24,000 nucleotides of DNA from Dehalococcoidia bacterium (lineage in GTDB: Bacteria; Chloroflexota; Dehalococcoidia; Tepidiformales; Tepidiformaceae). The stretch spans positions 17,691 to 41,690 of the forward strand of contig DAOTTM010000019.1 of assembly GCA_034437915.1 (NCBI GenBank), read 5' to 3'. Position numbers and translations under genes: made by a program. The notes under the pieces were generated by a model. The model was not told where the DNA came from, ran no database searches, and saw nothing but the letters and a program-made list of their open reading frames with translations. This document shows positions 1,118 through 21,032 of the stretch, one piece after another; the first letter of the stretch is position 1, and each line of letters opens with the position of its first letter.

Positions 1118-1172
1118 GCGAACTCTCCCACGGTGACGCCCGGCGTCTGCCCGCTATTTCTCACTGTTGGCC

Positions 1173-1772: not shown

Positions 1773-1774
1773 GG

Positions 1775-3179: not shown

Positions 3180-3183
3180 GCAG

Positions 3184-3801
3184 TTACCTCCCGGCTGCTT
3201 TTCGCAGCCGCTCCTCAAGTTTGTCCCAGGCGGCCTGGATGCCCGATTCAAGGGCCGCCAGGTCACTGTTGTTCTCTATAACGATGTTCGCCTTTGCGAC
3301 GCGCTCAGCGTTCGAAAGCTGCGATGAGATGCGCGCGCGCGCCGCCGCCTCATCGAGATTGTTGCGGGTCGCGAGACGTTGGACGGCGAGGTCCGGTTCG
3401 ACCACTACGACCCAAACTTCATCGACAAGATCTTGCCAGCCAGCTTCGAAAAGCACGGCTGCTTCGAGTACGGCCAGGTGGTTGCCCGCAGTCTCCAACT
3501 CGGAGAGAGCCTCGCTGGCGAGCTTGCGGATGCCTGGCCAGACGATATCCGTGAGCTTCTTCAGCTCTTCCGGCTTGCCAAACACCTTTCCGCCGAGCAC
3601 GCGGCGGTCGATGGACCCATCGGCGGCGACAAGGTCCGGTCCAAAGGCGGCGACGACGGCGTTGAACGTGTCCGTGTCAGGGTCGTATGTGCGGTGGCCA
3701 AGCACGTCCGCGTCCAAAACGGGCACTTCACGCGACTTGAAGAAAGTGGCAAGGGTCGATTTGCCGCTGGCGATCCCGCCAGTCAGCCCGATGACGTGCA
3801 A
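3184..3801 (-). CDS. coaE: Dephospho-CoA kinase
   Basis: N-terminus (M)[16 protein letters not shown]-loop followed by LDADVLGH; about 205 aa, typical for CoaE. TTG start with GGAGA upstream. Its stop lies 4 nt before the norQ-like start. Confidence 0.85.
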
Positions 3802-5648: not shown

Positions 5649-5818
5649 TTGTTTGTCCTCCTACTGAATGGCCATGCCTTCCGTGGCCAAGGAGACACAA
5701 CCACTCAAATCACCTTCCCCAACTCACCATAGCACCGTCTCGCCCGTTCAAGAGAAACAGAGCAAACCGCCGGAATGGCCGACGGTTACTCTGAAGTCGG
5801 GCGGCGACGCAGGAGCGC

Positions 5819-7099: not shown

Positions 7100-7304
7100 C
7101 CATTCCTTGATGCGGAGGACGAGCTTTGTTCTATCGTGAATGTTGACGTGCGAGTAGATATCGGAGACGTATTGCTCGATAGTCTTGATGTCGAGCGTCA
7201 ACGCCCCGGCCATCTCCTGGTTGGTAGCGCGCGTCGGCCAGCAACGGCAAGAGGTGAAGCAGGCGCGGCGCGAGGGTGTCGAACTCCTCAAAGCCGCTTA
7301 CCAT
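7100..7304 (-). pseudogene. GerE/LuxR-type HTH protein with a frameshift near 7228
   Basis: ATG at 7304 (GGAGG 5 nt upstream) gives MVSGFEEFDTLAPRLLHLLPLLADAR in one frame. The canonical HTH continues in another frame: ATNQEMAGALTLDIKTIEQYVSDIYSHVNIHDRTKLVLRI. The second frame has no stop until 6689. Confidence 0.6.
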
Positions 7305-7399
7305 GGTCGCCTCCATCCCGGGACGGGTCCCGAACGGATTCATCGCCTCCGCGCTGGCCGACAGTCCATCAGGCCACGGGCGAGGGACTGAAAACACCC

Positions 7400-7583: not shown

Positions 7584-9557
7584 ATGACCGAACCACGCGA
7601 TATTGGCCTGCCCGTGAACGAACGCTATGCCCCCGCCCAGCGCGTGCGTGATGGCGCCCTCGTCGCCACGAGGGCGGAGTACGACGAACTCTATCGCCGC
7701 AGCATCGAAGACCGCGACGCCTTCTGGGGCGAGATGGCGACGGCCAACATCGACTGGATCACCCCCTTCGAAACGGTCTGCGAAGAGGACATGTACGCGG
7801 GCAAGTTCACGTGGTTCGGCGGCGGCAAGCTCAACGTCTCCGCCAATTGCCTGGACCGCCACCTGGCGACGCGCGGCGAGCGCACGGCCATTCTCTGGGA
7901 GGGCGATGAGCCGGGCGTGAACCGCCGCGTCACCTATCGCCAGCTCTACGAAGACACCTGCCGTCTCGCCAACGCGCTCAAATCGCGGGGCGTTGTGAAG
8001 GGCGACCGCGTCGCGATCTATATGGGCATGGTCCCCGAAGTCGTGGTCGCGATGCTCGCCTGCGCACGCATCGGCGCCATACATTCGGTCATCTTCGGCG
8101 GCTTCAGCGCGCGCTCCATCCGTGACCGCGTGGAGGACTCGCTCTGCAAGGCGATCATCACGCAGGACGAGGGGCGTCGCGGTGGGCGGGCCGTGCCGCT
8201 CAAGCTGAACGTCGATGAAGCGCTGAGCGAAGGCTGCGAAAGCATCGAATTCACGATCGTCTATCGCCACACGGGCACCGCCGTCCCCATGACCAACGGC
8301 CGCGACGTCTGGTGGAACGATGCCCTTGGGGCCGAACCTGCCGAATGCGCGCCCGAGGTCATGGATTCCGAGGACCCGCTCTTCATCCTCTACACGTCTG
8401 GCTCGACGGGGAAGCCGAAGGGCGTGCTGCACACGCAGGCGGGCTACCTGCTCTTCACCATGCTCACGCACCGCTACGTCTTCGATATCCGCGACGACGA
8501 CATCTTCTGTTGCACGGCCGATGTCGGCTGGGTGACCGGCCACAGTTACATCGTCTACGGCCCGTTGGGCAACGGCACGACCTCCGTCATGATGGAATCC
8601 ATCCCGACCTACCCGGACGCGGGCCGCTTCTGGGACACCATCGACCGCCTCGCCATCACCGTCTTCTACACGGCTCCGACGGCCATCCGCGCGATCGCAC
8701 GCGAGGGCGACCACCATGTCACGAAGTACAGCCGCAAGAGCTTGCGCGTCCTCGGCACGGTGGGCGAGCCGATCAACCCGGAGGCCTGGCGCTGGTATTA
8801 CAACGTTGTCGGCGAAGGGCGCTGCGCGGTCGTGGACACCTACTGGCAGACCGAGACGGGCGGCCACATGATCACCGGTCTCGCCGCCGCCACGGACATG
8901 AAACCGGGTTCGGCATCGCTGCCGTTCTTCGGTGTGCAGCCGAGCGTCGTGGCGGAGGATGGGACTCTGATAGAGGGCAACAAGGCGACCGGTCGCCTCT
9001 GCATCGACCACTCCTGGCCGGGCATCATGCGAACCGTCTACGGCGACCACGAACGCTTCATCCAGACGTACTTTTCAACCTACCCGGGGCGCTATTTCAC
9101 GGGCGATGGCTGCCATCGCGACCAGGACGGCTATTACTGGATCACGGGGCGCGTGGACGACGTGCTGAATGTCGCTGGGCACCGCCTGGGCACCGCGGAG
9201 ATCGAGGGCGCGCTCGTTGGCCACGAAGCCTGCGCCGAAGCGGCGGTCGTGGGCTATCCGCACGACGTGAAGGGAACCGGTATCTACGCCTTCGTCCTGC
9301 TCAATGCGGGCACCAGCGGCTCACCAGAACTCGCGAAGGGATTACGCGACGCTGTGCGAAAAGACATCAGCGCCATCGCCACGCCGGACAAGATCCAGTT
9401 CGTCGAAGGCCTCCCAAAGACCCGTTCAGGCAAGATCATGCGCCGCATCCTCCGCAAGATCGCGGAGGGCGAACCGGAAAACGTGGGCGACGTGACGACG
9501 CTCGCCGACCCGGCCGTGGTCGAGGAGATTATCAACGGGTCACCGCGGGCACTCTGA
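7584..9557 (+). CDS. acs: Acetyl-CoA synthetase (AMP-forming)
   Basis: 657 aa. Acs-typical N-terminus ([20 protein letters not shown]), AMP-binding motif [19 protein letters not shown], and C-terminal [22 protein letters not shown] upstream of the ATG. Confidence 0.95.
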
Positions 9558-9634
9558 TCGGGCGTTGCGCTTGATGCTCCGATCGCCTGCGGGTCTTTTG
9601 GGAACGAGAATCCGCCGAGGAACGGCTCGCAAAT

Positions 9635-10969
9635 TCACCGCCCGCGGCCTGAGGCGGTGGGATGCTTCTGGCCCACCGGAGTGGTCCTGAGCGCTTCCCG
9701 GAACGTCGCAATCGCGCGTAGGCGCGCCTCGCGGTGGTCGACGATGGGCGCCGGTTGTGGCTCTGTTCCCAGCCACGCCGAACGATAGCTGCCCGTGGGG
9801 TCGAAGCGCGCCGCCTGGAGTTCCGGGTTCATCACCCGGAAATAGGGGGCGGCATCGGGACCCGTCGAGGCGGACCACTGCCATCCCAGCGAGTTATTCG
9901 CCACGTCACCATCGATCAGCTGGCGCATGAAGAACGCGCACCCCTCTCGCCAGTCGATGAGAAGGTCCTTGGTCAGGAAGGACGCGGCAACCATGCGCGC
10001 TCGGTTCGGCATGAAGCCCGTGCGGGAGAGCTGACACATCGCAGCGTCGACTAATCCGAACCCGGTCGTACCGGTTTGCCATCGCACAAGGGCCGCTGGG
10101 TCTCCGCGCCAGGCCACGCGGTCGTACGCCGGCTTGAGTGCGGCGTCGCGGAGACCTGGAAAGTGCCAGAGGAGGTAGGCCGCGAACTCTCGCCACGCGA
10201 GTTCGGACACGAACTTTTCGCTTCCGCGACAGGCCGCGAGAACTTCGATGGGAGACAGCAGGCCGAACTTGAGATCCTGGCTGAGGCGAGACGTGCCCTC
10301 CCGGCCGAGGTCGTCTCGCGCGTCTGCGTACTCCGCGAGGCGTTGGTCGGCGAACTTCCGCAGGCGTCCACGGGCTGCCCGCTCGCCCGGCTCAGGTGCC
10401 TGCTCCGGCTGTTCCGTTTCGACGTGCATGATTTGGAAGGGCGGACCTTCGCTCGCGGGAATGTCCAAGGTCCCAGCGCGAACAAGAGGGCGCGGTTCGT
10501 TCAGCATAAATCGGCGATGGAAAGCCGAGAACACTGTAAACGGCGCGCCAGTCTCGTTGGTGATGGAGGCCGGTTCGGTTATCAGGACTCCAGGATGTTC
10601 AACGAGTCGGACGCCAACATTCGCGAGGGTTGCAGCGACGTCGGCGTCGCGGCTCCGCCCATATGGCGCATAGTCACGGCTGACGTGTACCGATTGCGCC
10701 TCCATGAAGGTGACGAAGCCCGCCACGACCTGGCGCGGATTCCCGGTCACGACTGTCAACGGCACGCCAACGGTGGCCAACGACTCCCTCAGTTCTGCGA
10801 GCGACCCGAGCAAGAACCAGTTTCGCCTGGGCGACGACGATTTGCCGTTCGTCAGGACCGGGTCGATCACGAACAGGGCGCGCGGATTGCCTTCGCGCAA
10901 TGCCGCAGCTAACGCCGGGTGGTCGTGGACCCGAAGGTCACGGCGAAACCACACAACGGAACCGGACAT
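9635..10969 (-). CDS. phr: Deoxyribodipyrimidine (CPD) photolyase, class I type
   Basis: VVWFRRDLRVHDHPAL N-terminus. WREF and DGDVANNSLGWQW FAD-binding segments. The start is taken as ATG 10969 (MSGSVVWF), which overlaps the upstream stop as TGATG. Confidence 0.9.
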   Translation of the reverse strand: MSGSVVWFRRDLRVHDHPALAAALREGNPRALFVIDPVLTNGKSSSPRRNWFLLGSLAELRESLATVGVPLTVVTGNPRQVVAGFVTFMEAQSVHVSRDYAPYGRSRDADVAATLANVGVRLVEHPGVLITEPASITNETGAPFTVFSAFHRRFMLNEPRPLVRAGTLDIPASEGPPFQIMHVETEQPEQAPEPGERAARGRLRKFADQRLAEYADARDDLGREGTSRLSQDLKFGLLSPIEVLAACRGSEKFVSELAWREFAAYLLWHFPGLRDAALKPAYDRVAWRGDPAALVRWQTGTTGFGLVDAAMCQLSRTGFMPNRARMVAASFLTKDLLIDWREGCAFFMRQLIDGDVANNSLGWQWSASTGPDAAPYFRVMNPELQAARFDPTGSYRSAWLGTEPQPAPIVDHREARLRAIATFREALRTTPVGQKHPTASGRGR

Positions 10970-12405
10970 CAGCCGACCTGGACGGTCGCGAGCCACTCAG
11001 CGCGCTGCGCCATCGCCTTCGGCGTTCGCGAAAAGATGGACCCATGGGCCGGGGAGATAGCATACCAATAAAGCAGGCCCAAGATGCCAGCGGGGTGGAA
11101 GCGTGCCGTCATGGTCAATTCCGACGAATCTGGCCCGGTCGGGCTCACAACGAACTCCAGTACCGCAGCACCGGGGAGTTTCATCTCCGCGACGAGCGTG
11201 AGGCGTTTGCCCTCCTCCACGGCCGCAACGCGCCAGAAGTCCACGGCATCACCGACGTGCAGACGAGTCGGATGGCGTCTGCCGCGTCGCATGCCAACGC
11301 CTCCAAGGAGGCGGTCCATCGCCCCCCGGAGACGCCATAGCCCATCACCAAAGTAGTAGCCGCTGCGCCCACCGATGGACGAAACCACGCTCCATGTTGC
11401 GCTGGCCGGAGCACGAACGGGAACCGTCGTCGCCGTCCCCTTCGAATAGAACGAGACCGTCGGGTCGTACCCGCGAAAGGCGAGCGAACCCTCCGTCCAC
11501 CGAGCCACCACGGCGTTCGCTCGCTCATCTTCAAGGGCACGCCGGACGGCCTCGCGGTATGGCGTCAGCGGGATTGGGATGAGTCGCCGAATTTCACCGT
11601 CATTCGGCAGAAGGTCCTGCTTCAAACCGTCGATCAGGGGTCGTGCGATGGAGGCTGGCACGGCGGTGACGAGATCGAGCCAATACGACGAAATTCGGGG
11701 GGACAGCACCGGCACGGGAATGATCCATTGGCGACCCCCGCCGGTGACCTCCGCGAACTGTTTCATGAGGTCACGATAGCTCAGGGTCTCCGGGCCACCG
11801 ATATCCAGGGTCATCCCACCTGTCGATGGCACCGCAAGCACGCCGACGAGGTAGGCGAGGAGATCGTCCATGGCGATAGGCCGAGAACGCGAAGTGACCC
11901 ACTTTGGGGTGATCATCACGGGCAAGTGGTTCACGAGGTCACGAATGACTTCGAACGCTGCCGAACCAGCGCCAACGACCATGCCCGCCCGCAGCTCGGT
12001 CACAGCCACGGACCCTCCGCGTAGCAGCTCTCCCGTTTCTCGGCGAGACCGGAGGTGCTCGGATCCGGCCGACTCCAGGCCTCCAAGGTAAATGATTCGA
12101 GTCAGTCCGCAGTGCGCTGCGGCTTCGCGGAAGTTTGTTGCCGCAAGGCGGTCGCGAGCAGCGAAATCGCTCCCAGAGCCCATCGAATGCACCAGGTAGT
12201 AGGCGACTTCGATTCCCTCGAGGGCGCGTTCAAGGGATGCCCGGTCGAGCGCGTCCGCCTCAACTAATTCTACGCCCGCCCAACCTCGGCCTTCGAGAAC
12301 GGCCCGTCTGCGCGCCACCGCCCGGACGGTGTGGCCTTCGGCAATCAACCGCGGGACGAGGTGCGAACCCACGTAACCACTTGCTCCGACTACCGCCACG
12401 CGCAT
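10969..12405 (-). CDS. NAD(P)-binding SDR/NmrA-like protein with C-terminal DUF2867-type domain
   Basis: Rossmann motif VVGASGYVGSHLV. Length about 478 aa, with a long C-terminal extension typical of SDR+DUF2867 fusions. ATG 12405 is preferred over the track TTG at 12411. It sits 2 nt after the upstream stop. Confidence 0.75.
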   Translation of the reverse strand: MRVAVVGASGYVGSHLVPRLIAEGHTVRAVARRRAVLEGRGWAGVELVEADALDRASLERALEGIEVAYYLVHSMGSGSDFAARDRLAATNFREAAAHCGLTRIIYLGGLESAGSEHLRSRRETGELLRGGSVAVTELRAGMVVGAGSAAFEVIRDLVNHLPVMITPKWVTSRSRPIAMDDLLAYLVGVLAVPSTGGMTLDIGGPETLSYRDLMKQFAEVTGGGRQWIIPVPVLSPRISSYWLDLVTAVPASIARPLIDGLKQDLLPNDGEIRRLIPIPLTPYREAVRRALEDERANAVVARWTEGSLAFRGYDPTVSFYSKGTATTVPVRAPASATWSVVSSIGGRSGYYFGDGLWRLRGAMDRLLGGVGMRRGRRHPTRLHVGDAVDFWRVAAVEEGKRLTLVAEMKLPGAAVLEFVVSPTGPDSSELTMTARFHPAGILGLLYWYAISPAHGSIFSRTPKAMAQRAEWLATVQVG

Positions 12406-12407
12406 CT

Positions 12408-13298
12408 TCAAGACCCCTTACCCAGGGCCGCCCTGATTCCAGACTCGATTTCGCCAAACTGAAACTGGAATCCGCTGGCCACGAGCCGAGTCGGAACCAC
12501 GCGCTGGCTGGCGAGCAGAAGTTCGTCAGCCGAGCCTCCGAGCAGCAACCGCAAGGCTATAGGGGGTACGGGGAACAGCGCGGGCCGGTGAAGCACCTTC
12601 GCCAAGGCCCGAGTGAACTCTCGGTTGGTCACCGGTCCCGGCGCAGTCACGTTAAGCGTTCCCTCGGTGCCCGTGTCGAGGACGTACTGGATTGCCCGAA
12701 CGACGTCATCCAAAGCCACCCACGACATCCACTGGCGCCCGCGGCCCAGCGTCCCGCCCGCGCCAAAGCGAAAGGGCAACATCATGCGGGGAAAGGCCCC
12801 GCCATCGCGCGAAAGCACGACGCCGAAGCGCAGGATTGCAGTACGCAATGCGTCCTGGCCTTCCTTCGCCGCTTCCTCCCAGGCCGTCGTGATATCCGCG
12901 AGAAATCCCGTTCCCCGCGCGGATTCCTCCGTGAGAACAGCGTCGCCTCTGTTTCCGTAGTAGCCTACAGCCGAGGCGCTGACGAACGCCGGGGGCTTTG
13001 GCAGCTTCAACAAATGCGACACGAGCAAGCGCGTGGGTCCTACGCGGCTCTCCAGCAGCTCGCGGCGGCGGGATTCCGTCCACCGGCCTTCCCCAATGGA
13101 CGCACCGGCAAGGTGGACGACCGCGTCGATGCCCTCGAACGCTCCGGGGCGAATCCACCCGCTCGCGGGATCCCATGTCGACCCGGCCTGTTCGGCGGCG
13201 CCGCGCACAAACGGTACGACGCTATGCCCATTCGCTTGAAGATGGCTTCCCAAAGCCGTTCCGATGAGTCCCGTACTGCCGGTAATCGCAACGCGCAT
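12408..13298 (-). CDS. TIGR01777/YfcH-like (SDR39U1) epimerase-family NAD-binding protein
   Basis: MRVAITGSTGLIGTAL Rossmann motif. VVHLAG, YYG, and a C-terminal DUF1731-like end (RVVPTRLVASGFQFQF). Confidence 0.8.
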   Translation of the reverse strand: MRVAITGSTGLIGTALGSHLQANGHSVVPFVRGAAEQAGSTWDPASGWIRPGAFEGIDAVVHLAGASIGEGRWTESRRRELLESRVGPTRLLVSHLLKLPKPPAFVSASAVGYYGNRGDAVLTEESARGTGFLADITTAWEEAAKEGQDALRTAILRFGVVLSRDGGAFPRMMLPFRFGAGGTLGRGRQWMSWVALDDVVRAIQYVLDTGTEGTLNVTAPGPVTNREFTRALAKVLHRPALFPVPPIALRLLLGGSADELLLASQRVVPTRLVASGFQFQFGEIESGIRAALGKGS

Positions 13299-13337
13299 AA
13301 TTGGAGTCCTGTTCTGGGCGGTTCATGGCCGACCCGA

Positions 13338-14138
13338 TTAATTCGGCTGTAGCGTACCTGCGTAGACCTGCCAGGCAAGCAGTGACTTGGCTGTCAGGCT
13401 CAGGAGAATGTAAACGAACTCACCGAATACATAGTTTCGCCACGGCCCAATGCGCCGGTATTGAAGCAGCATGTTGATGGCAAAGACGTTGAACACTGCG
13501 AACATCGACCCAAATATCCAGTACACGAAGGTCGGTGGGCCACCGCCCTCTCCACCCGCGCCAGCAAGGTAAATGGCGATCCCGAGCCACGGTACGATGC
13601 CCGCCACGCATCCAAAGATGTATGCCGTCCAATCCGTAGTTTCAGTTGACTGGTTGTGGCGCTCCATCATCCAGCCAAACAGGATCATCGTCGCGTTCAA
13701 CGTGAAGAACGCAAGGAGCGCCACCGCGTCGTAGATGCCAACCAGCATCGCGATCACGACGATCATGATGGACGAACTGAACGCGTATTCGATCCAACGA
13801 GCGTAGTTGATACCGCGAGCCAGATTCTTCTGGTACCAGCCGTACACCCCTGGCAAGGAAACTACGATGTGGGCGAGGGCAGAAAGGAGCAAAAAGCTCG
13901 CAATGACGGGGGCGAGGCGGACTTCGAAGAGCGTACGGAGCCTGGGCTCCAGCGCCTGGGTGCCCTCGTTCATCTCCACGAAAGCGCCCGTTACAGGTAG
14001 CGCGAAGTCACTGGCAATCGCGAGCATGATGGCGCCCTGCACGAAATGCAGGGCCGCCATTGAAAAGTTCCAGCGCCGGAGGTTTCGCGAAAACCCGGGT
14101 GCTGCTTGCGGCGCCGCGCTGAGCGTTTGGAAAGCCAT
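13338..14138 (-). CDS. Heliorhodopsin
   Basis: 266 aa, 7-TM. Collinear with my recollection of heliorhodopsin 48C12: RWNF..ALHFVQG (His31), SALAHIVVS (His90), ARWIEYAFSSSIMIV (counterion Glu117), ILFGWM, FGCVAGIVPWLGIAIY, YILLSLTAKSLLAWQVYAGTLQP (retinal Schiff-base Lys251, codon at 13388-13386). Confidence 0.9.
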   Translation of the reverse strand: MAFQTLSAAPQAAPGFSRNLRRWNFSMAALHFVQGAIMLAIASDFALPVTGAFVEMNEGTQALEPRLRTLFEVRLAPVIASFLLLSALAHIVVSLPGVYGWYQKNLARGINYARWIEYAFSSSIMIVVIAMLVGIYDAVALLAFFTLNATMILFGWMMERHNQSTETTDWTAYIFGCVAGIVPWLGIAIYLAGAGGEGGGPPTFVYWIFGSMFAVFNVFAINMLLQYRRIGPWRNYVFGEFVYILLSLTAKSLLAWQVYAGTLQPN

Positions 14139-14185
14139 AGCAACCCCCCGTGCGAGTTTTCGCTCTATTTCGCCTTATGGAGAAG

Positions 14186-14211
14186 GAGGAGGAGAGAAGT
14201 CACTCCTCCTC
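14186..14211 (-). terminator. Perfect 9-bp polypurine/polypyrimidine hairpin (GAGGAGGAG-N8-CTCCTCCTC) between the DUF4397 gene and the heliorhodopsin gene
   Basis: Read directly from the sequence. No U-tract follows on the minus-strand transcript, so it may be a processing or stability element rather than an intrinsic terminator. Confidence 0.25.
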
Positions 14212-14227
14212 GATGCTCCGGTTCGGA

Positions 14228-15103
14228 TTAGCGGTTGCGTCGGACGGCGAAGGTCAAACCGGCGCCACCAGCGACGAGAAGGCTCAAGGCTGTCGCCAGG
14301 AAGAGCGACGACATTGCGCTGTCGCTAGAGGCTGCCAGTCCCGTGCCTGTGCCTGGCGCGGAGACGGTCACTGGCGCTTTTGCATCGGCGAGCGCCACAA
14401 CCTGGAGGGACCCGTTACCGGCAAGGCCCACCGCGACCGCGGTATAGACGTTGCGGTCGGCGAGGGCCAGGCTCACCGTCTTGACGACCTTGCTATCAGA
14501 TGCGGTGCGGACCTCAAGGTCGTACGAACCCGCCGCGACCGGTGTGTAGGTGCCGACGCCTTTGAACGCGACGTTGCTAAATACCTTCGTTGCTGTCCCT
14601 GCGACGGTGACATCAACGGCTGGCGCATCCGGCGACGCGTGGATGAGACGAACGTGTGCTTTGCCCGCGGCCGGGGCAGCGTTGTTGTCTTCCAGCGGAA
14701 GAAGACCGAGCGTCGAATTGCTGAGTTGGCCGACCGCAAGGACCGTATAGTCCTTGCCCGCGGCAACCTGGAGATTGGCTTCGAGGGCAGGAGCGCCCGT
14801 GCCCGTCGAGGGTGAAACGAAGACTTTGACGTTGTGACTTCCCGCGGACAATGAGACATACCCCGTGTCCTTCGGGAACGCGAGAGCCGTGACGGCCTTC
14901 TGACCATCGACGAAGATGTCGACGGCCGGAGCATCCGGCGATGCATGCATGACCCTGACGCGGCCATTAGCGGGTGCCTGAGCCCCCGCGTTGCCGAACA
15001 CCAGCAGTGCGGCCATCGCGGCCAAAATGACGGCGATGACCATTGAGCGACCAACAGATCCGAGTGCCAAGATATTTCTCCCGTTTTTCAAATGGACTGC
15101 CAA
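14228..15103 (-). CDS. Exported DUF4397-like repeat protein with C-terminal membrane anchor
   Basis: Signal/anchor at the N-terminus. Two internal repeats (RVRVMHASPDAPAVDIFVDG... / HVRLIHASPDAPAVDVTVAG...), typical of DUF4397. C-terminal SAPGTGTG, a hydrophobic helix, then RRNR. Confidence 0.7.
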   Translation of the reverse strand: MAVHLKNGRNILALGSVGRSMVIAVILAAMAALLVFGNAGAQAPANGRVRVMHASPDAPAVDIFVDGQKAVTALAFPKDTGYVSLSAGSHNVKVFVSPSTGTGAPALEANLQVAAGKDYTVLAVGQLSNSTLGLLPLEDNNAAPAAGKAHVRLIHASPDAPAVDVTVAGTATKVFSNVAFKGVGTYTPVAAGSYDLEVRTASDSKVVKTVSLALADRNVYTAVAVGLAGNGSLQVVALADAKAPVTVSAPGTGTGLAASSDSAMSSLFLATALSLLVAGGAGLTFAVRRNR

Positions 15104-15139
15104 AGTCGGCCGACGCTGTTGCGTTAACCTTGACCATCC

Positions 15140-15210
15140 TTGTACAGACTATGCGTGAGCATGGGTCTGATGTCAAGTGTTTGCATAACTTTGGTACAAA
15201 GTGCTAGGCT
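15140..15210. promoter_or_regulatory. Back-to-back divergent promoters, each overlapped by a TTGTAC half-site (candidate LitR/CarH operator)
   Basis: Minus-strand promoter: TTGACA (15176-15171), N17, CATAGT (15153-15148). Plus-strand promoter: TTGCAT (15181-15186), N18, TAGGCT (15205-15210), which predicts a leaderless litR-like mRNA starting at ATG 15217. TTGTACA at 15140-15146 and its inverted copy GGTACAA at 15193-15199. Confidence 0.4.
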
Positions 15211-15216
15211 ACCGGC

Positions 15217-16083
15217 ATGCTCATGAGAATCGGCGCCCTCAGCCAACATACGGGCATCTCCGCCGAAGTACTGCGTTCTTGGGAACGGCGTTATGGCTTG
15301 CTCGAACCGGAGCGAACCGCGGGAGGGTTTCGCCTTTATACGGAAGACGACGTTCGGCGAGTGCTCCGCGTGAAGGCTCTCATCGCCGGAGGAGCCTCGG
15401 CTTCGCAAGCAGCGCACCAGGTGCTGGCTGACGCGCGCGACGAGACAGGAACCGGCTCAGCATCGGGAATCCCACCCACCAGTGAGTGCAGGGCCGCCCT
15501 GGCCGCTGCTTTCCGATCGCTCAGCAGTTCGTCCATTGAGGCAGCTGTTGACCTCGTCTTTGCCCGGCTGGACCTCGATAGCGCCATCCTGGATGTGTTC
15601 ATTCCCTGTCTGCGCGAACTGGGCGAAGATTGGTTCGACGGTCGCACGACGGTGGGCCAGGAACATGTGGCCGTTAACGCCCTTCGTGGCCGTCTCATGG
15701 GCTTGAGTCGAGGCTGGGACCGCGGGCTTGGGCCGCGGGTCGTGCTCGCATGCCCACCTGGGGACTATCACGACGTCTCCCTCATCCTTTTCGGGCTTGC
15801 GCTCCACCAACGTGGGTGGCGAGTGACATTCCTTGGCGCCGATACGCCCATCGAAACGCTGATTGAGGTTCGCGAAACACTGCGGCCCCGCATTACCGTG
15901 CTGTTTTCGGCCCAGTGGGCTACTCATCCAGGGCTGGCTGGCGGACTAGCCAGGCTCGCGACGGGACCAACTGCTCTCGCCGGTCCAAACGGAGCAAGTC
16001 TCGCCAAGCAGGCGGGCATTCGCTGGCTCCAGGGCGACCCTGTAGCGGAGGCTGATTCGCTCACGGAAGAATCCCGCGCGTAG
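15217..16083 (+). CDS. MerR-family regulator with cobalamin (B12)-binding domain, LitR/CarH type
   Basis: MerR HTH at the N-terminus (MRIGALSQHTGISAEVLRSWERRYGLLEPERTAGGFRLY). B12-binding module with W-x9-EH (DWFDGRTTVGQEHVAVNALR) and a DxH-type segment (PPGDYHDVSLILFG), followed by GWRVTFLGADTP. An alternative start is at 15223. Confidence 0.8.
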   Translation: MLMRIGALSQHTGISAEVLRSWERRYGLLEPERTAGGFRLYTEDDVRRVLRVKALIAGGASASQAAHQVLADARDETGTGSASGIPPTSECRAALAAAFRSLSSSSIEAAVDLVFARLDLDSAILDVFIPCLRELGEDWFDGRTTVGQEHVAVNALRGRLMGLSRGWDRGLGPRVVLACPPGDYHDVSLILFGLALHQRGWRVTFLGADTPIETLIEVRETLRPRITVLFSAQWATHPGLAGGLARLATGPTALAGPNGASLAKQAGIRWLQGDPVAEADSLTEESRA

Positions 16084-16172
16084 ATAGTTCCCGGTCGTTC
16101 GGTCAGCCCAATCGGCGACTCCCGCGAGCGCCGACATCTGCTGAGCGGAGACAGAAATGAGAAGAAAATTGT

Positions 16173-16249
<77 letters not shown>

Positions 16250-16332
16250 AGATTTCCGATGGTACCACGGCGGTGCGTACTGTGGACAAGGTTCCCCGGG
16301 CCGCCCCCGGACACAACGAATTGGCGCTTGGG

Positions 16333-17943
16333 TTAGGCGGCAGCCAGATTCGCAGAGCCACCCTGATCCCTGAGGTATGCCTCGAACTCGATCGGCGGGA
16401 CCGCGGGCGAAAGGAAATAGCCCTGGCCAGTGTGGACCCCCAAGGCCCGGAGGTAGTCGTGCTGCCAGGCCGTCTCGATGCCCTCCGCAGTCACCTGCAT
16501 CATCGATGCTTTTCCGAGGTAGACGATCGAGGCGACGATCGCGAGCGCTCGTTCGTCCCCCGGTCCTGTGAGCGGGCGCACGAACGACTGGTCGATCTTG
16601 AGCGTGTCGAAGGGCAGCTTGTGGATGTAGCTGAGGGACGAATACCCGGTGCCGAAGTCATCGATGGCGAGATGAACGCCGAGAACATGGAGGTCGTTGA
16701 GCGTCTCGATGCTGAGGCCCACATCGCGCATGACCACCGTCTCGGTCAGTTCGAGTTTGAGGTTGGCCGCGGACAGTCCAGACTCGTGGAGCGCGTCACT
16801 GACGTTCTGAACGAGGTCTCCGTGAAGGAGTTCCGTCGCCGAGATATTTACGGCGACCGTGAAATCGCCGGGGACATGGCCGTCCGAGATCAGCACCCGC
16901 AGATATTCGCACGCCTGGCCCAATGCCCAGGCCCCGATGCGCACAATCTCCCCGGATTCCTCTGCGATTTCGAGGAAGTCCGCGGGCATAAGCAAGCCGC
17001 GATGGGGATGGTTCCACCGGATCAACGCTTCCATACCGACCACTTCGCCACTGTGAAGGTCATGTTCCGGCTGGTAGTGGAGCGTCAATTGGCCCCGGTC
17101 TACTGCCCGACGCAGGCCGCTGTCCAAGCGCAGCCGGTCTTCGGACAGCTCGTCAATCTCCGGATCGAAGACAGCGAAACGGGCGCGCCCGTGTGCCTTG
17201 GCGCGATACACGGCGATATCCGCTTTGCGAAGGAGGTCGGCCGTGCTTGGATTCTCGTTCACGGCCACTCCCGCGCTCGTGGTCACAAACAATTCATGTC
17301 CGCCAACCTCATACGTGTGCGAGAGTGCGTGCGTCAACTGCTCCGCGAGCGCGATGCCACGGTCGCCAGCATCATCTCCCTGGACGATCGCACCGAACTC
17401 GTCGCCACCGAGTCGACCCACGAAAACGTCATCGCCGGCGGCGGCAAGGAAGCGCGCGGCGAGACTCGACAAGAGCACATCGCCGAGCGTATGCCCGAGC
17501 GTGTCATTGACGAGTTTGAAGCGGTCGATATCGAAAAAGAGCACGGCAACGCGGCCAGCCGCACCATCTTCGCCGAGGGCGCGGTCAAGCAGGGCCTTGA
17601 ACATGGCGCGGTCGGGCAGGCCCGTCAACGGATCGAATGACCCGCGGCGAGTGTCGCGTGTGAACACAGGACGTTCCGCGACCGGCGATGGAGTAGCCGA
17701 GGGCCGATCTAATGCCGTGGCCCCGACGGTGGACCTTTCGAGGGTGGGGGCGCCCATTCCGCTGGCGCGGGGACGCACCATGGCATCGAGCACCGCGTGG
17801 ACGAGCATGGCCGCTGCCACGACGGCAATCCACGGCGAGACAAGGCCACCAAAGCCAAGTGCCGAGAGACATGCCGCAGCCGCGCCGATGTACGATGTCG
17901 AAGCAATCAGCGGTCGATGATTCGCCCGAATCCAAAGAGCCAC
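16333..17943 (-). CDS. Membrane-anchored GGDEF-EAL protein (diguanylate cyclase/phosphodiesterase)
   Basis: N-terminal hydrophobic helices. DPLTGLPDR ... GGDEFGAIV (GGDEF domain). EALIRW ... DDFGTGYSS ... KIDQSF (EAL domain). Confidence 0.9.
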   Translation of the reverse strand: MALWIRANHRPLIASTSYIGAAAACLSALGFGGLVSPWIAVVAAAMLVHAVLDAMVRPRASGMGAPTLERSTVGATALDRPSATPSPVAERPVFTRDTRRGSFDPLTGLPDRAMFKALLDRALGEDGAAGRVAVLFFDIDRFKLVNDTLGHTLGDVLLSSLAARFLAAAGDDVFVGRLGGDEFGAIVQGDDAGDRGIALAEQLTHALSHTYEVGGHELFVTTSAGVAVNENPSTADLLRKADIAVYRAKAHGRARFAVFDPEIDELSEDRLRLDSGLRRAVDRGQLTLHYQPEHDLHSGEVVGMEALIRWNHPHRGLLMPADFLEIAEESGEIVRIGAWALGQACEYLRVLISDGHVPGDFTVAVNISATELLHGDLVQNVSDALHESGLSAANLKLELTETVVMRDVGLSIETLNDLHVLGVHLAIDDFGTGYSSLSYIHKLPFDTLKIDQSFVRPLTGPGDERALAIVASIVYLGKASMMQVTAEGIETAWQHDYLRALGVHTGQGYFLSPAVPPIEFEAYLRDQGGSANLAAA

Positions 17944-18521: not shown

Positions 18522-21032
18522 GTGAATTCGCCGGCCGCGCAAGATTGGGGCCGGGCCATGCCTGCAAACGTCAATGCAATCCTCTCCGCCGCGCTCGATG
18601 GGCGGCTCCCTTCGGATGAAGAGGCACGCTCCTTGTCCGAGACCACGGATCTGTCCCGCCTGCTCGCTGTGGCGACGACGCTGCGCGATGTGGGGCACGG
18701 ACCGCTCGTTTCATACTCGCGGAAAGTGTTCATCCCGCTGACCCAGCTCTGCCGCGACGTCTGCCACTACTGCACGTTTGCGCAGCCGCCCAAGCCGGGC
18801 GAACGCGCTTACCTGACAGCGGAGGAAGTTCTCGCCATCGCCCGCGCCGGCGCCGCCCAGGGCTGCAAGGAAGCGCTCTTCACGCTCGGCGATAAGCCCG
18901 AATTGCGATACAAGGTGGCAAAACGCGAACTCGCGGAACTGGGGCACGAAACGACGATCTCCTACCTCACGGAGATGGCCGGACTCGTCCTCAAGGAGAC
19001 GGGTCTCTTCCCACACGCCAACCCGGGCGTTATGACACTCGACGAGATCGCGGCGCTGCGCAAGGTTTCCGTTTCGCAGGGCATCATGTTGGAGAGTGTT
19101 TCTGATCGCCTCATGAAGAAGGGCGCGGCGCACTACGGGTCGCCGGACAAGAAGCCATCCGTTCGACTCGAAACGATGCGCATCGCGGGCGAACTCCAGG
19201 TCCCATTCACCTCGGGCATCCTCATTGGCATTGGCGAGACGCGCCTCGAACGCATCGAGTCGTTCCTGGCTTTGCGTGACTTGCACCAGCGATACGGACA
19301 CATCCAGGAGATTATCGTCCAGAACTTCCGCGCCAAGGAAGGCACGAAGATGGTCGATTGGCCCGAACCGGACCTCGACGACCTGCTCTGGACGATTGCC
19401 GTCGCGCGCGTCATCTTCGGACCGAAGATGAACATCCAGGCGCCCCCAAACTTGAGCCCGGAGCACTACCCGCGCCTTGTGGCAGCCGGCCTGAACGACT
19501 GGGGCGGCGTCTCGCCCGTGACGCCTGACCACGTCAACCCGGAGGCGCCGTGGCCGCACCTCGAAGAGTTGCGGAAGAACACGGCAGCGACGGGCAAGTA
19601 CCTGCTGGAACGCCTGGCGGTCTACCCGGACTACAATAAGGATGTTGCGCGCTGGCAGGATGCCGCCTTGCGCACTCCCGTCCTCAAGGCGGTGGATGCC
19701 GACGGCTTCGCGCGCACCGAAGACTGGTCCCCAGGACTCAAGACGGAGGTCCCGGCGGAATACGAAACACTGCTCCACCACATCGATGTCCGCCCGACGG
19801 TCTCCGCGACATCCGAGGTTGGCGGCATCGTCGCCCGCGCCCGCGCTAGGGACGGCATCACCGAGGCCGAAATCGCACGACTCTTCCGCGCGCGCGGCGA
19901 CGAATTCTTCGAGATTTGCACGGCAGCCGATGCGCTGCGACGCGAGGTCAACGGCGACACGGTCACGTACGTCGTCAACCGCAATATCAACTACACGAAC
20001 ATCTGCTATTTCAAGTGCCAGTTCTGCGCCTTCTCGAAGGGCAAGCTGAGCGAGAACCTGCGCGGTGCGCCCTACGACCTCGGCATCGACGAAGTCGTTC
20101 GCCGCGCCGAAGAGGCCTGGGCGCGGGGCGGGACCGAGGTCTGTATGCAGGGCGGCATTCATCCCGAGTACACGGGCGAAACCTACCTCAAGCTGGCGTC
20201 GGCCGTGAAGGCAGCCATCCCCGGGATGCACGTGCACGCGTTTTCGCCGCTCGAAGTGTGGCAGGGCGCGCAAACACTCGGCATCGGCCTCCGCGAATTC
20301 CTCGTCCGTCTCAAGGAAGCCGGGCTCGGGACGTTGCCCGGCACGGCTGCGGAAGTGCTCGACGACGACGTGCGGGCCACGCTCTGCCCGGACAAGCTCA
20401 ACACAGCGGAGTGGCTCGAAGTCATGGAGACCGCCCACGAAGTTGGCTTCCAGACGACCTCGACGATCATGTATGGCCACATCGATGGGCCGGAGAACTG
20501 GGCGAAGCACCTCGTGCGCCTGCGCGACCTCCAGATCAAGACAGGTGGCTTCACGGAGTTCGTTCCCTTGCCCTTCGTCCACATGGAAGCGCCGATCTAT
20601 CTCAAAGGGAACGCGCGCAAGGGCCCGACCTTCCGCGAGGCCGTGCTCATGCACGCCGTCGCCCGCCTTGCCTTGCACCCGCACATCACGAACATCCAGG
20701 TCTCGTGGGTGAAGATGGGCGAAGACGGCGTGAAGGCCTGTCTCCAAGCCGGCTGCAACGACCTCGGCGGGACGCTCATGAACGAAAGCATCACGCGCGC
20801 CGCAGGCACCGAGCACGGCCAGGAGCTGCCGCCCTGGAAGATGGAGGAGATCATTCGCTCCATTGAGCGCGAGCCGCGCCAGCGCAGCACGACCTACGGC
20901 ACGCCCCCGGAGAGCCAGGTACAGCTTTCGTTCCACGCTGAAGCGCTCACACCGGTCATCCTCACGCCCGCCAGGAAGTATGACCGCGTCGGTCGCAAGC
21001 GCGAGGCGGACGAGGCCGTTCCCGTCGTATGA
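18522..21032 (+). CDS. fbiC: FO synthase, fused CofG/CofH (7,8-didemethyl-8-hydroxy-5-deazariboflavin synthase)
   Basis: 836 aa with two radical-SAM cluster motifs (CRDVCHYCTF and CYFKCQFCAF). CofH-like NINYTNIC. Length and order match bifunctional FbiC. The start is either GTG 18522 or ATG 18558. Confidence 0.9.
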   Translation: MNSPAAQDWGRAMPANVNAILSAALDGRLPSDEEARSLSETTDLSRLLAVATTLRDVGHGPLVSYSRKVFIPLTQLCRDVCHYCTFAQPPKPGERAYLTAEEVLAIARAGAAQGCKEALFTLGDKPELRYKVAKRELAELGHETTISYLTEMAGLVLKETGLFPHANPGVMTLDEIAALRKVSVSQGIMLESVSDRLMKKGAAHYGSPDKKPSVRLETMRIAGELQVPFTSGILIGIGETRLERIESFLALRDLHQRYGHIQEIIVQNFRAKEGTKMVDWPEPDLDDLLWTIAVARVIFGPKMNIQAPPNLSPEHYPRLVAAGLNDWGGVSPVTPDHVNPEAPWPHLEELRKNTAATGKYLLERLAVYPDYNKDVARWQDAALRTPVLKAVDADGFARTEDWSPGLKTEVPAEYETLLHHIDVRPTVSATSEVGGIVARARARDGITEAEIARLFRARGDEFFEICTAADALRREVNGDTVTYVVNRNINYTNICYFKCQFCAFSKGKLSENLRGAPYDLGIDEVVRRAEEAWARGGTEVCMQGGIHPEYTGETYLKLASAVKAAIPGMHVHAFSPLEVWQGAQTLGIGLREFLVRLKEAGLGTLPGTAAEVLDDDVRATLCPDKLNTAEWLEVMETAHEVGFQTTSTIMYGHIDGPENWAKHLVRLRDLQIKTGGFTEFVPLPFVHMEAPIYLKGNARKGPTFREAVLMHAVARLALHPHITNIQVSWVKMGEDGVKACLQAGCNDLGGTLMNESITRAAGTEHGQELPPWKMEEIIRSIEREPRQRSTTYGTPPESQVQLSFHAEALTPVILTPARKYDRVGRKREADEAVPVV

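Follow-up and report, generated by a model that had tools for sequence, protein, structure and literature searches.

A heliorhodopsin gene string behind a CarH-type operator in a Dehalococcoidia bacterium: a probable light-inducible photoprotection operon

Genomic surveys (Bulzu 2021, PMC8612252; Chazan preprint, 10.1101/2021.02.16.431466; Cho 2024, PMC11109279) tie heliorhodopsins (HeRs) to oxidative stress and lipid remodelling and list photolyases, cobalamin-binding proteins, MerR-family regulators, SDR oxidoreductases and DUF1295 proteins as their neighbours. In the last of these surveys, the SDR and MerR groups share no operons with other groups (PMC11109279). In Trichococcus flocculiformis the photolyase is bound by TfHeR and its activity raised about 3-fold (PMC9769723). 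Transcripts of heR in Aurantimicrobium rise in the dark and not in light (PMC8591293), so that HeR genes are not induced by light as a rule. Clusters with LitR-family regulators in Pseudomonas contain phrB, a short-chain dehydrogenase, an FAD oxidoreductase and ufaM, and the sensor acting through P. mendocina PmlR2 is a 'short' LOV blue-light photoreceptor (PMC9758184). For CarH of Thermus thermophilus (TtCarH), the operator repeats follow the consensus nAnnTnnACAn and overlap the -35 box (PMC8156234). Anabaena ThyD (All2390), a TIGR01777 member, associates with membranes; high light induces it 5-8 fold, and growth under high light depends on it (PMC11711299). A link of HeR to CarH/LitR, to an operator or to adenosylcobalamin/B12 dependence was not found in the literature searched.

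The window, the whole 24,000-nucleotide stretch analysed here, carries on its minus strand five consecutive genes, for a DUF4397 protein, a HeR, a TIGR01777 protein, an SDR/DUF2867 protein and a photolyase (Table 1). An earlier note, made from the sequence alone, had described this string, and open reading frames together with Pfam and NCBIfam searches bore it out. The junction lengths it gave also held when read in the sequence: 89 nt between the DUF4397 and HeR genes (14139-14227), 39 nt between HeR and TIGR01777, a 2-nt gap (TGA-ag-ATG) before SDR/DUF2867 and a 1-nt TGATG overlap (TGA 10971-10969, ATG 10969-10967) before the photolyase. A second assembly, the SRR6448210 contig (L172), is 99.84% identical across window positions 12508-16250 and has the same gene order. 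We consider it probable that the string is a light-inducible photoprotection operon under a divergent CarH/LitR (AdoCbl) repressor. Its position directly behind a CarH operator points to a light-switched sun-protection operon rather than to a new rhodopsin signalling system, and the adjacent CarH photoreceptor gene and operator suggest that the clustering of the genes reflects co-regulation.

Table 1. Features of the locus in window coordinates.
Feature	Position	Strand	Basis or detail
Weak terminator-like hairpin	9612..9625	-	Consensus scan; directly past photolyase stop codon
Cryptochrome/photolyase-family protein, last operon gene	9635..10969	-	DNA_photolyase 1e-41, FAD_binding_7 3e-59
YbjT-type protein: atypical SDR/NmrA-like Rossmann N-domain, DUF2867 C-domain	10969..12405	-	Pfam
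TIGR01777 (YfcH / SDR39U1 / ThyD-type) NAD(P)-binding protein, DUF1731 C-terminus	12408..13298	-	
Heliorhodopsin	13338..14138	-	PF18761 4e-100; NF038020 332.6 bits vs cutoff 100
9-bp GGAGG/CCTCC hairpin, GAGGAGGAG/CTCCTCCTC	14186..14211	-	DUF4397-HeR spacer; sequence and centroid fold
Two-domain DUF4397 protein, first operon gene	ORF 14228-15103, likely 14228..15070	-	Pfam 1.1e-56
Putative operator set B, two to three inverted repeat-like units, AACCTTGACCA / TCCTTGTACAG / ACTATGCGTGA	15126..15158	+	
Sigma-70-like operon promoter	15148..15176	-	TTGACA (15176-15171), 17-nt spacer, CATAGT (15153-15148)
Putative CarH operator set A, three 11-bp direct repeats, ACTTTGTACCA / AAGTTATGCAA / ACACTTGACAT	15170..15202	-	
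carH/litR-like gene (MerR helix-turn-helix, AdoCbl-binding photoreceptor repressor)	15217..16083	+	Pfam, NCBIfam, PDB alignment

Judged by its sequence, the product of 15217-16083 is a CarH/LitR-type repressor with adenosylcobalamin (AdoCbl) as predicted light sensor. It matched Pfam MerR_1, B12-binding_2 and B12-binding as well as the NCBIfam CarH model (1.6e-42), with a score of 145.7 that lies below the equivalog cutoff of 400, and it aligned over its full length with T. thermophilus CarH (3WHP/5C8D, E~1e-27). The Wx9EH (W...EH) and DxH motifs are present, and the segment PPGDYHD aligns with PPGERHE of Thermus CarH, the histidine of which we take to be H177. A -10 box, TAGGCT (15205-15210), lies 6 nt 5' of the ATG, and the mRNA is probably leaderless. 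This gene, divergent to the five-gene string, had been overlooked in the earlier note.

The 113-bp intergenic region between carH and the operon contains three tandem 11-bp direct repeats (set A), the design of a CarH operator. Set A overlaps both promoters, that of the operon at the -35 box and that of carH at the -35/spacer region. In an alignment of eight loci from Chloroflexota and Gaiellales its T and C columns are invariant with a period of 11 bp and match positions T5 and C9 in the TtCarH consensus. The window repeats read ACnYTnGACAA; position 2 is thus C where the consensus has A, which counts against control by CarH. With a leave-one-out position weight matrix (PWM) trained on other loci, set A scored 35.1 bits vs 9.4 for the runner-up site in the 24 kb. 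When HeR loci totalling 2.66 Mb, counting both strands, were scanned, strong matches outside the training set occurred solely at light-gene promoters. On L087, a contig without a carH gene, the match lies 115 nt 5' of HeR. Set B, the inverted set, overlaps the operon -10 box and transcription start and ranked fourth among PWM matches in the window; equivalent inverted sets were present in L001, L002, L011 and L085.

The operon promoter agrees with the consensus at 10/12 positions, and related loci retain its -35 box. It is the sole promoter-like site in 9400-15400, where shuffled sequence yields 0.9 matches, so that one match is at background level. This single site lies upstream of the first gene, and the five genes may plausibly be transcribed as a unit. 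The terminator-like hairpin past the photolyase gene is no stronger than matches in shuffled sequence. For the DUF4397 gene the most likely start is TTG 15070 (280 aa, RBS GGGAGA), also the start of the 280-aa gene call in L172. The N-terminus of this protein resembles a signal peptide and its hydrophobic C-terminal tail closes with RRNR, which suggests that it is probably secreted and surface-anchored; in L051 a DUF4397 gene adjoins a sortase gene and HeR.

From this arrangement we infer light induction and co-transcription of the five genes, although the heR transcripts of Aurantimicrobium speak against the former. Without light, an oligomer of AdoCbl-loaded CarH would sit on the tandem 11-bp direct repeats. 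Occupancy of set A would cover the operon -35 box and also CarH's own leaderless promoter, and occupancy of set B the operon -10 box and start site. UV-to-green light would photolyse AdoCbl and release CarH from the DNA, and a single mRNA would then encode the DUF4397 surface protein, HeR, the ThyD/YfcH-type and YbjT-type proteins and the class I-like photolyase. HeR would in this case be an output of light sensing and not necessarily the primary sensor.

Related loci share these elements. The same operator stands 5' of the HeR transcription unit in all seven lineages with a HeR at least 67% identical to that of the window, and in two Gaiellales genomes. A carH gene adjoins the HeR unit in the window, L001, L002, L003, L085, L088, L011 and L035. 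Across Chloroflexota and Actinomycetota a shared set recurs in shuffled order: CarH, DUF4397, HeR, TIGR01777, SRPBCC, acyltransferase, DUF1295, YbjT-like SDR-DUF2867 and photolyase. Co-occurrence with HeR exceeded background: in 80 species-representative HeR loci we counted CarH in 5, photolyase in 7, SDR-DUF2867 in 7 and TIGR01777 in 2, and nine control genes of the same window in none. The SDR-DUF2867 gene lies on the carH side in L001 and L085 and in a carH-DUF1295-SDR/DUF2867-photolyase operon in L035; it moves, yet it joins carH-side units and would therefore remain under CarH control whatever the order. The earlier note's light-response/repair module thus stands as light-related and plausibly one transcription unit, but not as a dedicated four-gene order: HeR, TIGR01777, SDR/DUF2867, photolyase in exactly this order was found in the window and in none of about 90 related loci.

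This bears on a different view, in which HeR is the primary sensor of a dedicated four-gene module and has the Rossmann proteins, the photolyase or all three as direct signalling or enzymatic partners, as in Trichococcus. For the HeR itself, alignment to 48C12-type and TaHeR structures placed H31, H90, E117 and K251, the residues named in the earlier note, opposite H23, H80, E107 and K241 of 48C12, and all four are invariant among 24 homologues. HeR and TIGR01777 genes are adjacent in both orders, with 37-39 nt spacers or a 1-nt overlap, no more than 10 kb separates HeR from photolyase in 7 of the 80 species loci, and Cho 2024 names 'photolyase', 'SDR' and 'MerR' groups among HeR neighbours (PMC11109279). 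The Trichococcus operon, TfHeR-DUF2238-photolyase (PMC9769723), also places HeR and photolyase on one strand within a single predicted operon, and the binding and stimulation reported there, together with the charge of TfHeR K227 kept as R229, favour a direct partnership. However, no photolyase was found in the loci of the six closest HeR relatives, and only 1 of 80 YbjT loci contains a HeR. The Trichococcus photolyase is class II, whereas that of the window is class I-like by sequence: its PDB matches were 1OWL/1TEZ (1e-76), 1IQR and 1DNP, with class II 2XRY at merely 1e-8. The designation as a CPD photolyase holds in that class I CPD enzymes are most similar, but the NCBIfam 8-HDF type and PRK10674 models (~1e-89) were both matched below their equivalog cutoffs. 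Furthermore, TfHeR R162 and E97 are replaced by Q163 and W101, and the mutation R162Q abolishes binding in TfHeR; DUF2238 separates HeR from photolyase there, TIGR01777 and the YbjT-like gene here, and a CarH regulator is not described for that operon. The precedent therefore transfers poorly, and we regard HeR as primary sensor as unlikely. This view is compatible with CarH control and concerns only the role of HeR once made. After translation, HeR may assist one of the proteins expressed with it in a light-dependent manner. By synteny the most persistent candidate partner is the product of the TIGR01777 gene rather than the photolyase: this gene directly adjoins HeR in the window, L001, L003 and L088, shares an operon with it in L002 and is divergent in L010.

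The hairpin in the 89-nt spacer, already reported in the earlier note, could separate transcripts and counts against a CarH-controlled operon. CarH might then control only itself and DUF4397, with the transcript ending at this stable stem, HeR and the downstream genes constitutive, and the clustering without regulatory meaning. Analogous, longer hairpins lie 5' of HeR in L001 and L085. The region's z-score is only -1.1, and covariation is weak. The element, however, lacks a T tract, and no promoter-like site lies between it and HeR. Moreover, in L003, L035, L087 and L085 operator and promoter lie directly 5' of HeR without an intervening DUF4397 gene, and in L088 a single string running in one direction comprises carH, SRPBCC, TIGR01777 and HeR. 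Such a restricted regulon is very unlikely.

The two Rossmann proteins between HeR and photolyase belong to broad families. The TIGR01777 protein scored 322.7 bits against the NCBIfam cutoff of 207 and matched 3OH8 (6e-61) and 4B4O (8e-50). The SDR-DUF2867 protein (DUF2867 match 1.2e-31) belongs to the widespread YbjT family, usually found away from light genes, and JGI names its homologues 'YbjT (DUF2867 family)'. Its full-length AF2 model (pLDDT 80) matches NDUFA9, NmrA-like reductases and SimC7 in the N-domain. The C-domain model (pLDDT 89), with all top 50 PDB matches Bet v 1-like, predicts a Bet v 1/START (SRPBCC) fold with a Bet v 1-type hydrophobic ligand pocket. Both proteins may have as substrates hydrophobic compounds of the membrane that either suffer damage in light or are required there. 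Retinol dehydrogenases are SDRs. E. coli, the host of the TIGR01777 member YfcH, is not known to make retinal. That the pair supplies or recycles the chromophore (retinal/retinol or carotenoid-derived redox), offsetting missing nearby blh/crt, would agree with the predicted pocket, with the pairing of TIGR01777 and an SRPBCC protein in relatives and with the absence of crt/blh families among the scanned window ORFs, where the earlier note had also seen none, but it is the least probable explanation, as both families extend well beyond HeR-bearing organisms, the Tepidiforma YbjT copy has unrelated neighbours, the YxxxK position is apparently HxxxR in the window's YbjT clade, which suggests an atypical, possibly non-catalytic SDR, and absence of blh near HeRs is a general rule (preprint 10.1101/2021.02.16.431466).

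Set against described systems, the probable CarH-controlled operon most resembles the class I (AdoCbl-dependent) CarH/LitR regulons of Thermus thermophilus, Bacillus megaterium, Myxococcus xanthus and Streptomyces. Common to them are the MerR helix-turn-helix, a four-helix bundle with Wx9EH and a Rossmann domain with histidine ligand, an operator of tandem 11-bp direct repeats over a sigma-A-type promoter, a divergent, presumably autoregulated regulator gene and photoprotective cargo. The window differs in this cargo, which is HeR, two atypical SDR-fold proteins, a DUF4397 surface protein and photolyase instead of carotenoid synthesis, in its repeat sequence, in a regulator under the CarH equivalog cutoff, and in the second inverted set over the -10 box and start, a 3+3 repeat layout that we did not find described in the literature searched. 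Class II LitR members are not known to use AdoCbl chemistry. The regulators of the Pseudomonas clusters belong to this class (PMC9758184); there, too, the regulator adjoins photolyase and dehydrogenase genes in a conserved light-inducible cluster, but the dehydrogenase is of another family and a rhodopsin is absent. ThyD belongs to the same family as the window TIGR01777 protein, which, however, scores 255 against the ThyD equivalog cutoff of 400 and comes from an organism without thylakoids. Unlike the separate groups of Cho 2024, the window locus unites SDR, MerR and photolyase. The association of HeR with light genes is partly anticipated in the literature; the link at the level of the operator is new.

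The heliorhodopsin (HeR) cluster is probably best read as a stress operon of known kind with shared regulation of its genes, rather than as a new signalling system. All five consecutive co-directional genes claimed in the earlier note were found on the minus strand by a six-frame ORF list and profile searches (see table). The junctions, too, could be read as claimed: the first two gaps measure 89 and 39 nt, the third only 2 nt (TGA-ag-ATG), and the last two genes overlap by one base (TGATG). The last three genes, encoding the TIGR01777 oxidoreductase, the SDR-DUF2867 (YbjT-type) protein and the photolyase, are probably translationally coupled. For the DUF4397 gene, TTG 15070 is the probable start codon (280 aa), matching the gene call in contig L172, an independent assembly from another sequencing run with 99.84% identity over window positions 12508-16250. 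Since L172 shows the identical gene order, the arrangement is no assembly artefact. The C-terminus of the DUF4397 protein (SAPGTGTG, a hydrophobic stretch, RRNR) resembles a sortase sorting signal; on an Acidimicrobiia contig (L051, 657-2363), a sortase gene stands between a DUF4397 gene and HeR, in that direction. A purine-rich GGAGG/CCTCC hairpin lies 5' of the HeR gene in the window and on the related contigs L001 (~9935-9964, 13 bp) and L085 (~7275-7312, 14 bp), in the latter with no DUF4397 gene preceding. None of the three hairpins had a U tract or an Rfam match, and covariation was weak. The hairpin may serve as a processing site, an attenuator or a stabiliser.

Features of the window by position, strand and supporting match
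Feature	Position	Strand	Match or remark
23S_rRNA_IVP/bAvd-like protein and CbbQ/NorQ-type AAA ATPase	1775-3266	-	
Cryptochrome/photolyase-family protein	9635-10969	-	profile search
NmrA/NAD_binding_10-type Rossmann protein, C-terminal DUF2867	10969-12405	-	profile search
TIGR01777 oxidoreductase with DUF1731 tail	12408-13298	-	322.7 bits vs 207.35
Heliorhodopsin (HeR)	13338-14138	-	PF18761 E 4e-100; NCBIfam NF038020 332.6 bits vs cutoff 100
Hairpin 5' of HeR gene	14186-14211	-	9 bp
Two-domain DUF4397 protein	14228-15103	-	E 1e-56 (profile search)
C-terminus of DUF4397 protein	14228-14350	-	
Inverted repeat-like units (set B)	15126-15158	+	
Three tandem 11-bp repeats (set A)	15202-15170		
Operon -35 box	15176-15171		TTGACA
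-10-like box to ATG of carH	15205-15219	+	TAGGCT
carH-like gene	15217-16083	+	288 aa
tRNA-Pro(GGG)	16173-16249	-	
GGDEF-EAL protein	16333-17943	-	
FbiC-like protein	18522-21032	+	836 aa

Directly upstream of the operon, on the opposite strand, lies a carH-like gene overlooked in the earlier note. By Pfam, its product has an N-terminal MerR-type helix-turn-helix (MerR_1, 1.5e-14) and a C-terminal B12-binding module (B12-binding_2, 5e-07; B12-binding, 9e-08). Its best NCBIfam match is the light-dependent repressor CarH (1.6e-42), and an alignment with Thermus thermophilus CarH (TtCarH; 3WHP/5C8D, E ~1e-27) spans the entire protein. It did not reach the CarH equivalog NF052513 (145.7 bits vs cutoff 400). 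A Wx9EH motif, W-FDGRTTVGQ-EH, aligned with the W...EH of TtCarH, and the (D/E)xH pattern was found as well. In CarH, the Wx9EH motif caps the adenosyl group. The segment PPGDYHD aligned with PPGERHE of TtCarH, which carries H177, the lower axial histidine ligand of the cobalt. By architecture and motifs, the regulator is thus best classed as a CarH-like family member, not as a curated equivalog. The -10-like box ends six bases before the carH ATG and the predicted -35 box lies inside the repeats described below, a placement that suggests a leaderless and autoregulated carH mRNA. L001, L003 and L085 share this TAnnnT-6/7 nt-ATG layout; in L002 the spacer is 4 nt long. Immediately past carH follow the tRNA gene and the gene for the GGDEF-EAL protein (cyclic-di-GMP turnover); GGDEF/EAL genes near heliorhodopsins were noted by Bulzu et al. 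2021 (PMC8612252). Elsewhere in the window, unrelated to the operon, a 23S_rRNA_IVP/bAvd-like four-helix-bundle protein adjoins an AAA ATPase.

The 113-bp spacer between carH and the operon holds the only sigma-70-like promoter found in 9400-15400, its TTGACA being separated by 17 nt from CATAGT. The tandem units of set A, ACTTTGTACCA, AAGTTATGCAA and ACACTTGACAT, run across this -35 box. In an alignment of eight loci (the window, four Chloroflexota relatives, a Dehalococcoidia MAG and two Gaiellales), T and C were invariant every 11 bp, which matches positions T5 and C9 in the repeat consensus published for CarH, nAnnTnnACAn. Over 21 repeat units T5, A8, C9 and A10 were conserved, with C at position 2 where the consensus has A. 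In Thermus, three direct repeats of this consensus likewise overlap the -35 box (PMC8156234). Scored with a position weight matrix built from the other loci only, set A reached 35.1 bits; the next best of ~48,000 window positions reached 9.4 bits, and the next few matches also fell in the same spacer. Among these lower-ranked matches were the inverted repeat-like units of set B, which cover the -10 box and the start site. Set B lies just downstream of set A, and the two together form a predicted ~77-bp, 3+3 head-to-head operator. An inverted second set was also seen in L001 (~8983-9015), L002 (~5652-5684), L011 (~3224-3256) and L085 (~7122-7154).

Contig-by-contig inspection of the closest HeRs placed the predicted operator before the HeR transcription unit in each of the seven distinct lineages whose HeR shares at least 67% identity with that of the window. 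The genes behind it were shuffled. In L001 (Tepidiformaceae), SDR-DUF2867 and carH diverge from DUF4397-HeR-TIGR01777-SRPBCC-acyltransferase-DUF1295, and in L002 carH diverges from DUF4397-TIGR01777-SRPBCC-acyltransferase-DUF1295-HeR. An Anaerolineaceae MAG (L003) has carH diverging from HeR-TIGR01777-SRPBCC-like, and L085 has SDR-DUF2867 and carH diverging from HeR-acyltransferase, the DUF1295 gene that comes next being present on its sibling contigs, L084 and L086. In L088 (Dehalococcoidia), carH-SRPBCC-TIGR01777-HeR occupy one strand. L087, a 10-kb contig with no carH gene, has a triple-repeat site of 30 bits that precedes HeR by 115 nt; here HeR comes after F420-related genes (F420_oxidored, F420_ligase; 1108-3776). 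The operator architecture extends to a second phylum: in L035 (Gaiellales), HeR diverges from a textbook operator-promoter, with photolyase, SDR-DUF2867, DUF1295 and carH on one strand, and L011 (Gaiellaceae) is arranged analogously. In L051, DUF4397-sortase-HeR converges on photolyase, acyltransferase and SDR-DUF2867. A second strong operator-like site (29 bits) was found in L035 (1-4200), 8 kb from HeR, with a fatty-acid desaturase gene on one side and, diverging from it on the other, a FAD-oxidoreductase/DUF1365-like/cyclopropane-fatty-acid-synthase-like string. Sets of such genes are characteristic of regulons for photo-oxidative stress.

Across 80 species-representative HeR loci (1.18 Mb), homologues of the photolyase and of SDR-DUF2867 were each found near HeR in seven, of CarH in five and of TIGR01777 in two, whereas each of nine other window genes, taken as controls, was found in none. 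All positive loci belonged to Chloroflexota, Actinomycetota or unclassified bacteria, and the window families were absent near HeR from the 34 Patescibacteria and 6 archaea among the 80. According to the earlier note, a synteny unique to this genome, with no co-occurrence above chance, would refute its module; for the gene set, this was not what the loci showed. The exact order HeR-TIGR01777-SDR/DUF2867-photolyase was seen in this window only.

We consider it likely that the locus is a CarH-repressed, light-induced operon. In the dark, AdoCbl-CarH (AdoCbl, adenosylcobalamin) would occupy the repeats and block both divergent promoters. UV-to-green light would break the Co-C bond of AdoCbl and CarH would dissociate, allowing transcription of all five genes, which would include read-through of the hairpin-containing spacer. 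That the hairpin between DUF4397 and HeR splits the operon is less likely, as other loci place the operator-promoter directly before HeR. In Aurantimicrobium, heR mRNA rose in the dark (PMC8591293), which cautions against extending light induction to every heliorhodopsin.

The window HeR passed the curated cutoffs of both profiles, with 334.5 bits against 26.7 for Pfam PF18761 and a hit to the NF038020 equivalog. The residues put forward in the earlier note as critical could be confirmed in alignments to solved heliorhodopsins: the helix 1/2 histidines H31 and H90, the counterion E117 and the Schiff-base lysine K251 in the last helix align with H23, H80, E107 and K241 of 48C12 and were invariant in 24 homologues. 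The photolyase (PF00875 1e-41, PF03441 3e-59) has class I CPD enzymes as closest solved structures (Anacystis 1OWL/1TEZ 1e-76, Thermus 1IQR, E. coli 1DNP 9e-72). Class II 2XRY matched at 1.5e-8 only, and TIGR00591 phr2 gave 55 bits vs a cutoff of 550. Class I equivalog cutoffs were not reached (8-HDF type 299 bits vs 884.6; PRK10674 298 vs 506). It is judged a family member, most like class I CPD enzymes and with CPD as putative substrate. Its best NCBIfam match was the 8-HDF-type class I model. FO (8-HDF) is the antenna chromophore of that type. The window also encodes a putative fused FO synthase (FbiC), with two radical-SAM domains and CofH_C; in the vicinity of its gene, nothing resembling a CarH operator was found.

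A dedicated module in which HeR acts on a partner, as first proposed for this locus, is compatible with CarH control, yet weakly supported with the photolyase as that partner. As in Trichococcus flocculiformis (TfHeR/TfPHR), HeR and photolyase lie on the same strand in one predicted operon; in the window, two genes and no internal promoter-like site lie between them. TfPHR, however, is a class II enzyme, unlike the class I-like photolyase of the window. Of the cytoplasmic-loop binding residues E97, R162 and K227 of TfHeR, pairwise aligned with W101, Q163 and R229, only the last keeps its charge; the assignment of Q163 is somewhat uncertain because of a 2-residue gap in the loop alignment. In TfHeR, the mutation R162Q abolishes photolyase binding (PMC9769723). 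In addition, the closest HeRs have no photolyase nearby. That the Rossmann proteins handle a retinoid or carotenoid chromophore of HeR is very improbable, both families extending well past HeR-bearing organisms, E. coli included, and blh being generally absent near HeRs (preprint 10.1101/2021.02.16.431466).

The most persistent HeR neighbour is the TIGR01777 protein. With its DUF1731 segment (4e-16) and PDB matches 3OH8 and 4B4O, it can be placed by homology in the YfcH/SDR39U1/ThyD family, although the ThyD equivalog was not reached (255 vs 400). Expression of Anabaena ThyD, of the TIGR01777 family, rises 5-8 fold in high light, and the protein is needed for growth under this condition (PMC11711299). 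The YbjT-type protein has a glycine-rich GASGYVG motif, NAD_binding_10 (3e-14) and DUF2867 (110 bits vs cutoff 27). In its AlphaFold model (pLDDT 80), the N-terminal Rossmann domain was nearest to NDUFA9, NmrA-like reductases and the ketoreductase SimC7. NDUFA9 is a non-catalytic NADPH-binding subunit of complex I. A conserved segment of this YbjT clade appears to read H117-L-x-S-R121 (HxxxR) in place of the YxxxK of extended SDRs, and catalysis is uncertain for this reason. Residues 318-478, modelled alone (pLDDT 89), matched only Bet v 1/START/polyketide-cyclase folds among the top 50 PDB matches, by which DUF2867 is predicted to be a hydrophobic-ligand pocket domain of Bet v 1-like fold. 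The fusion of Rossmann and pocket domains mirrors the separate TIGR01777 and SRPBCC genes of the relatives. When their profiles were compared directly, the two pocket proteins gave no match. The highly conserved SRPBCC-like protein (~170 aa, WHHQHHF motif; L001 11735-12253, L002 7622-8104, L003 8207-8731, L088 8556-9077) is always encoded beside TIGR01777 in relatives and is absent from the window, where the fusion is found instead. The TIGR01777 structure 3OH8 from C. glutamicum has 148 additional residues at the N-terminus, possibly a fused SRPBCC equivalent. In general, the YbjT family shows no link to light genes.

In the proposed CarH-controlled operon, HeR would be a second photoreceptor made in the light, which may tune a co-expressed neighbour. 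We tentatively envisage, as a speculative extension, a two-tier cascade in a clade that spans Chloroflexota and Gaiellales: CarH, acting directly on HeR transcription, would gate synthesis of HeR and its companions, and slow-cycling HeR would then tune an NAD(P)-binding/lipid-pocket partner in the membrane, either the YbjT fusion or the ThyD/YfcH-type TIGR01777 protein paired with SRPBCC. If true, heliorhodopsin would gain its first conserved partner in these phyla and a link to the light-dependent protection of membrane lipids. A HeR behind a CarH operator would have a predictable expression, namely in light with B12 available, and candidate partners narrow to a small, recurrent, co-regulated set in which the TIGR01777/ThyD-type protein is persistent, unlike the photolyase of the sole published precedent. 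The CarH/LitR regulon would extend past carotenoid genes to a second photoreceptor and to the widespread, uncharacterised YfcH and YbjT families, for which the CarH linkage would be a first physiological context.

CarH/LitR regulons (PMC8156234) and HeR-photolyase linkage (PMC9769723) are already published, as are 'cobalamin-binding', 'MerR' and 'SDR' neighbours of HeR (PMC11109279; preprint 10.1101/2021.02.16.431466). Our literature search of the searchable texts gave no paper joining 'heliorhodopsin' with LitR, CarH, adenosylcobalamin or B12-dependent. Equally absent from these texts were the link at operator level by which HeR is predicted to be under direct CarH control in a defined clade, the DUF2867 fold assignment, the 3+3 inverted repeat layout and the pairing of HeR with TIGR01777 as a conserved feature. 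The CarH operators described in a review (PMC8156234) have three or four repeats in tandem, all with the same orientation, whereas the predicted operator of the window type has an added inverted set; if true, this would be a new CarH binding architecture. The companions of HeR, among them the pocket-bearing NAD(P)-binding domains, the acyltransferase, DUF1295 membrane protein, desaturase and CFA-synthase-like protein of relatives, and the photolyase, point to membrane-lipid protection or remodelling, along with DNA repair, under light. This reading fits earlier neighbourhood surveys, which link heliorhodopsins to oxidative stress and lipid remodelling (PMC8612252; preprint 10.1101/2021.02.16.431466), and the LitR clusters of Pseudomonas, which combine phrB with a short-chain dehydrogenase (PMC9758184).
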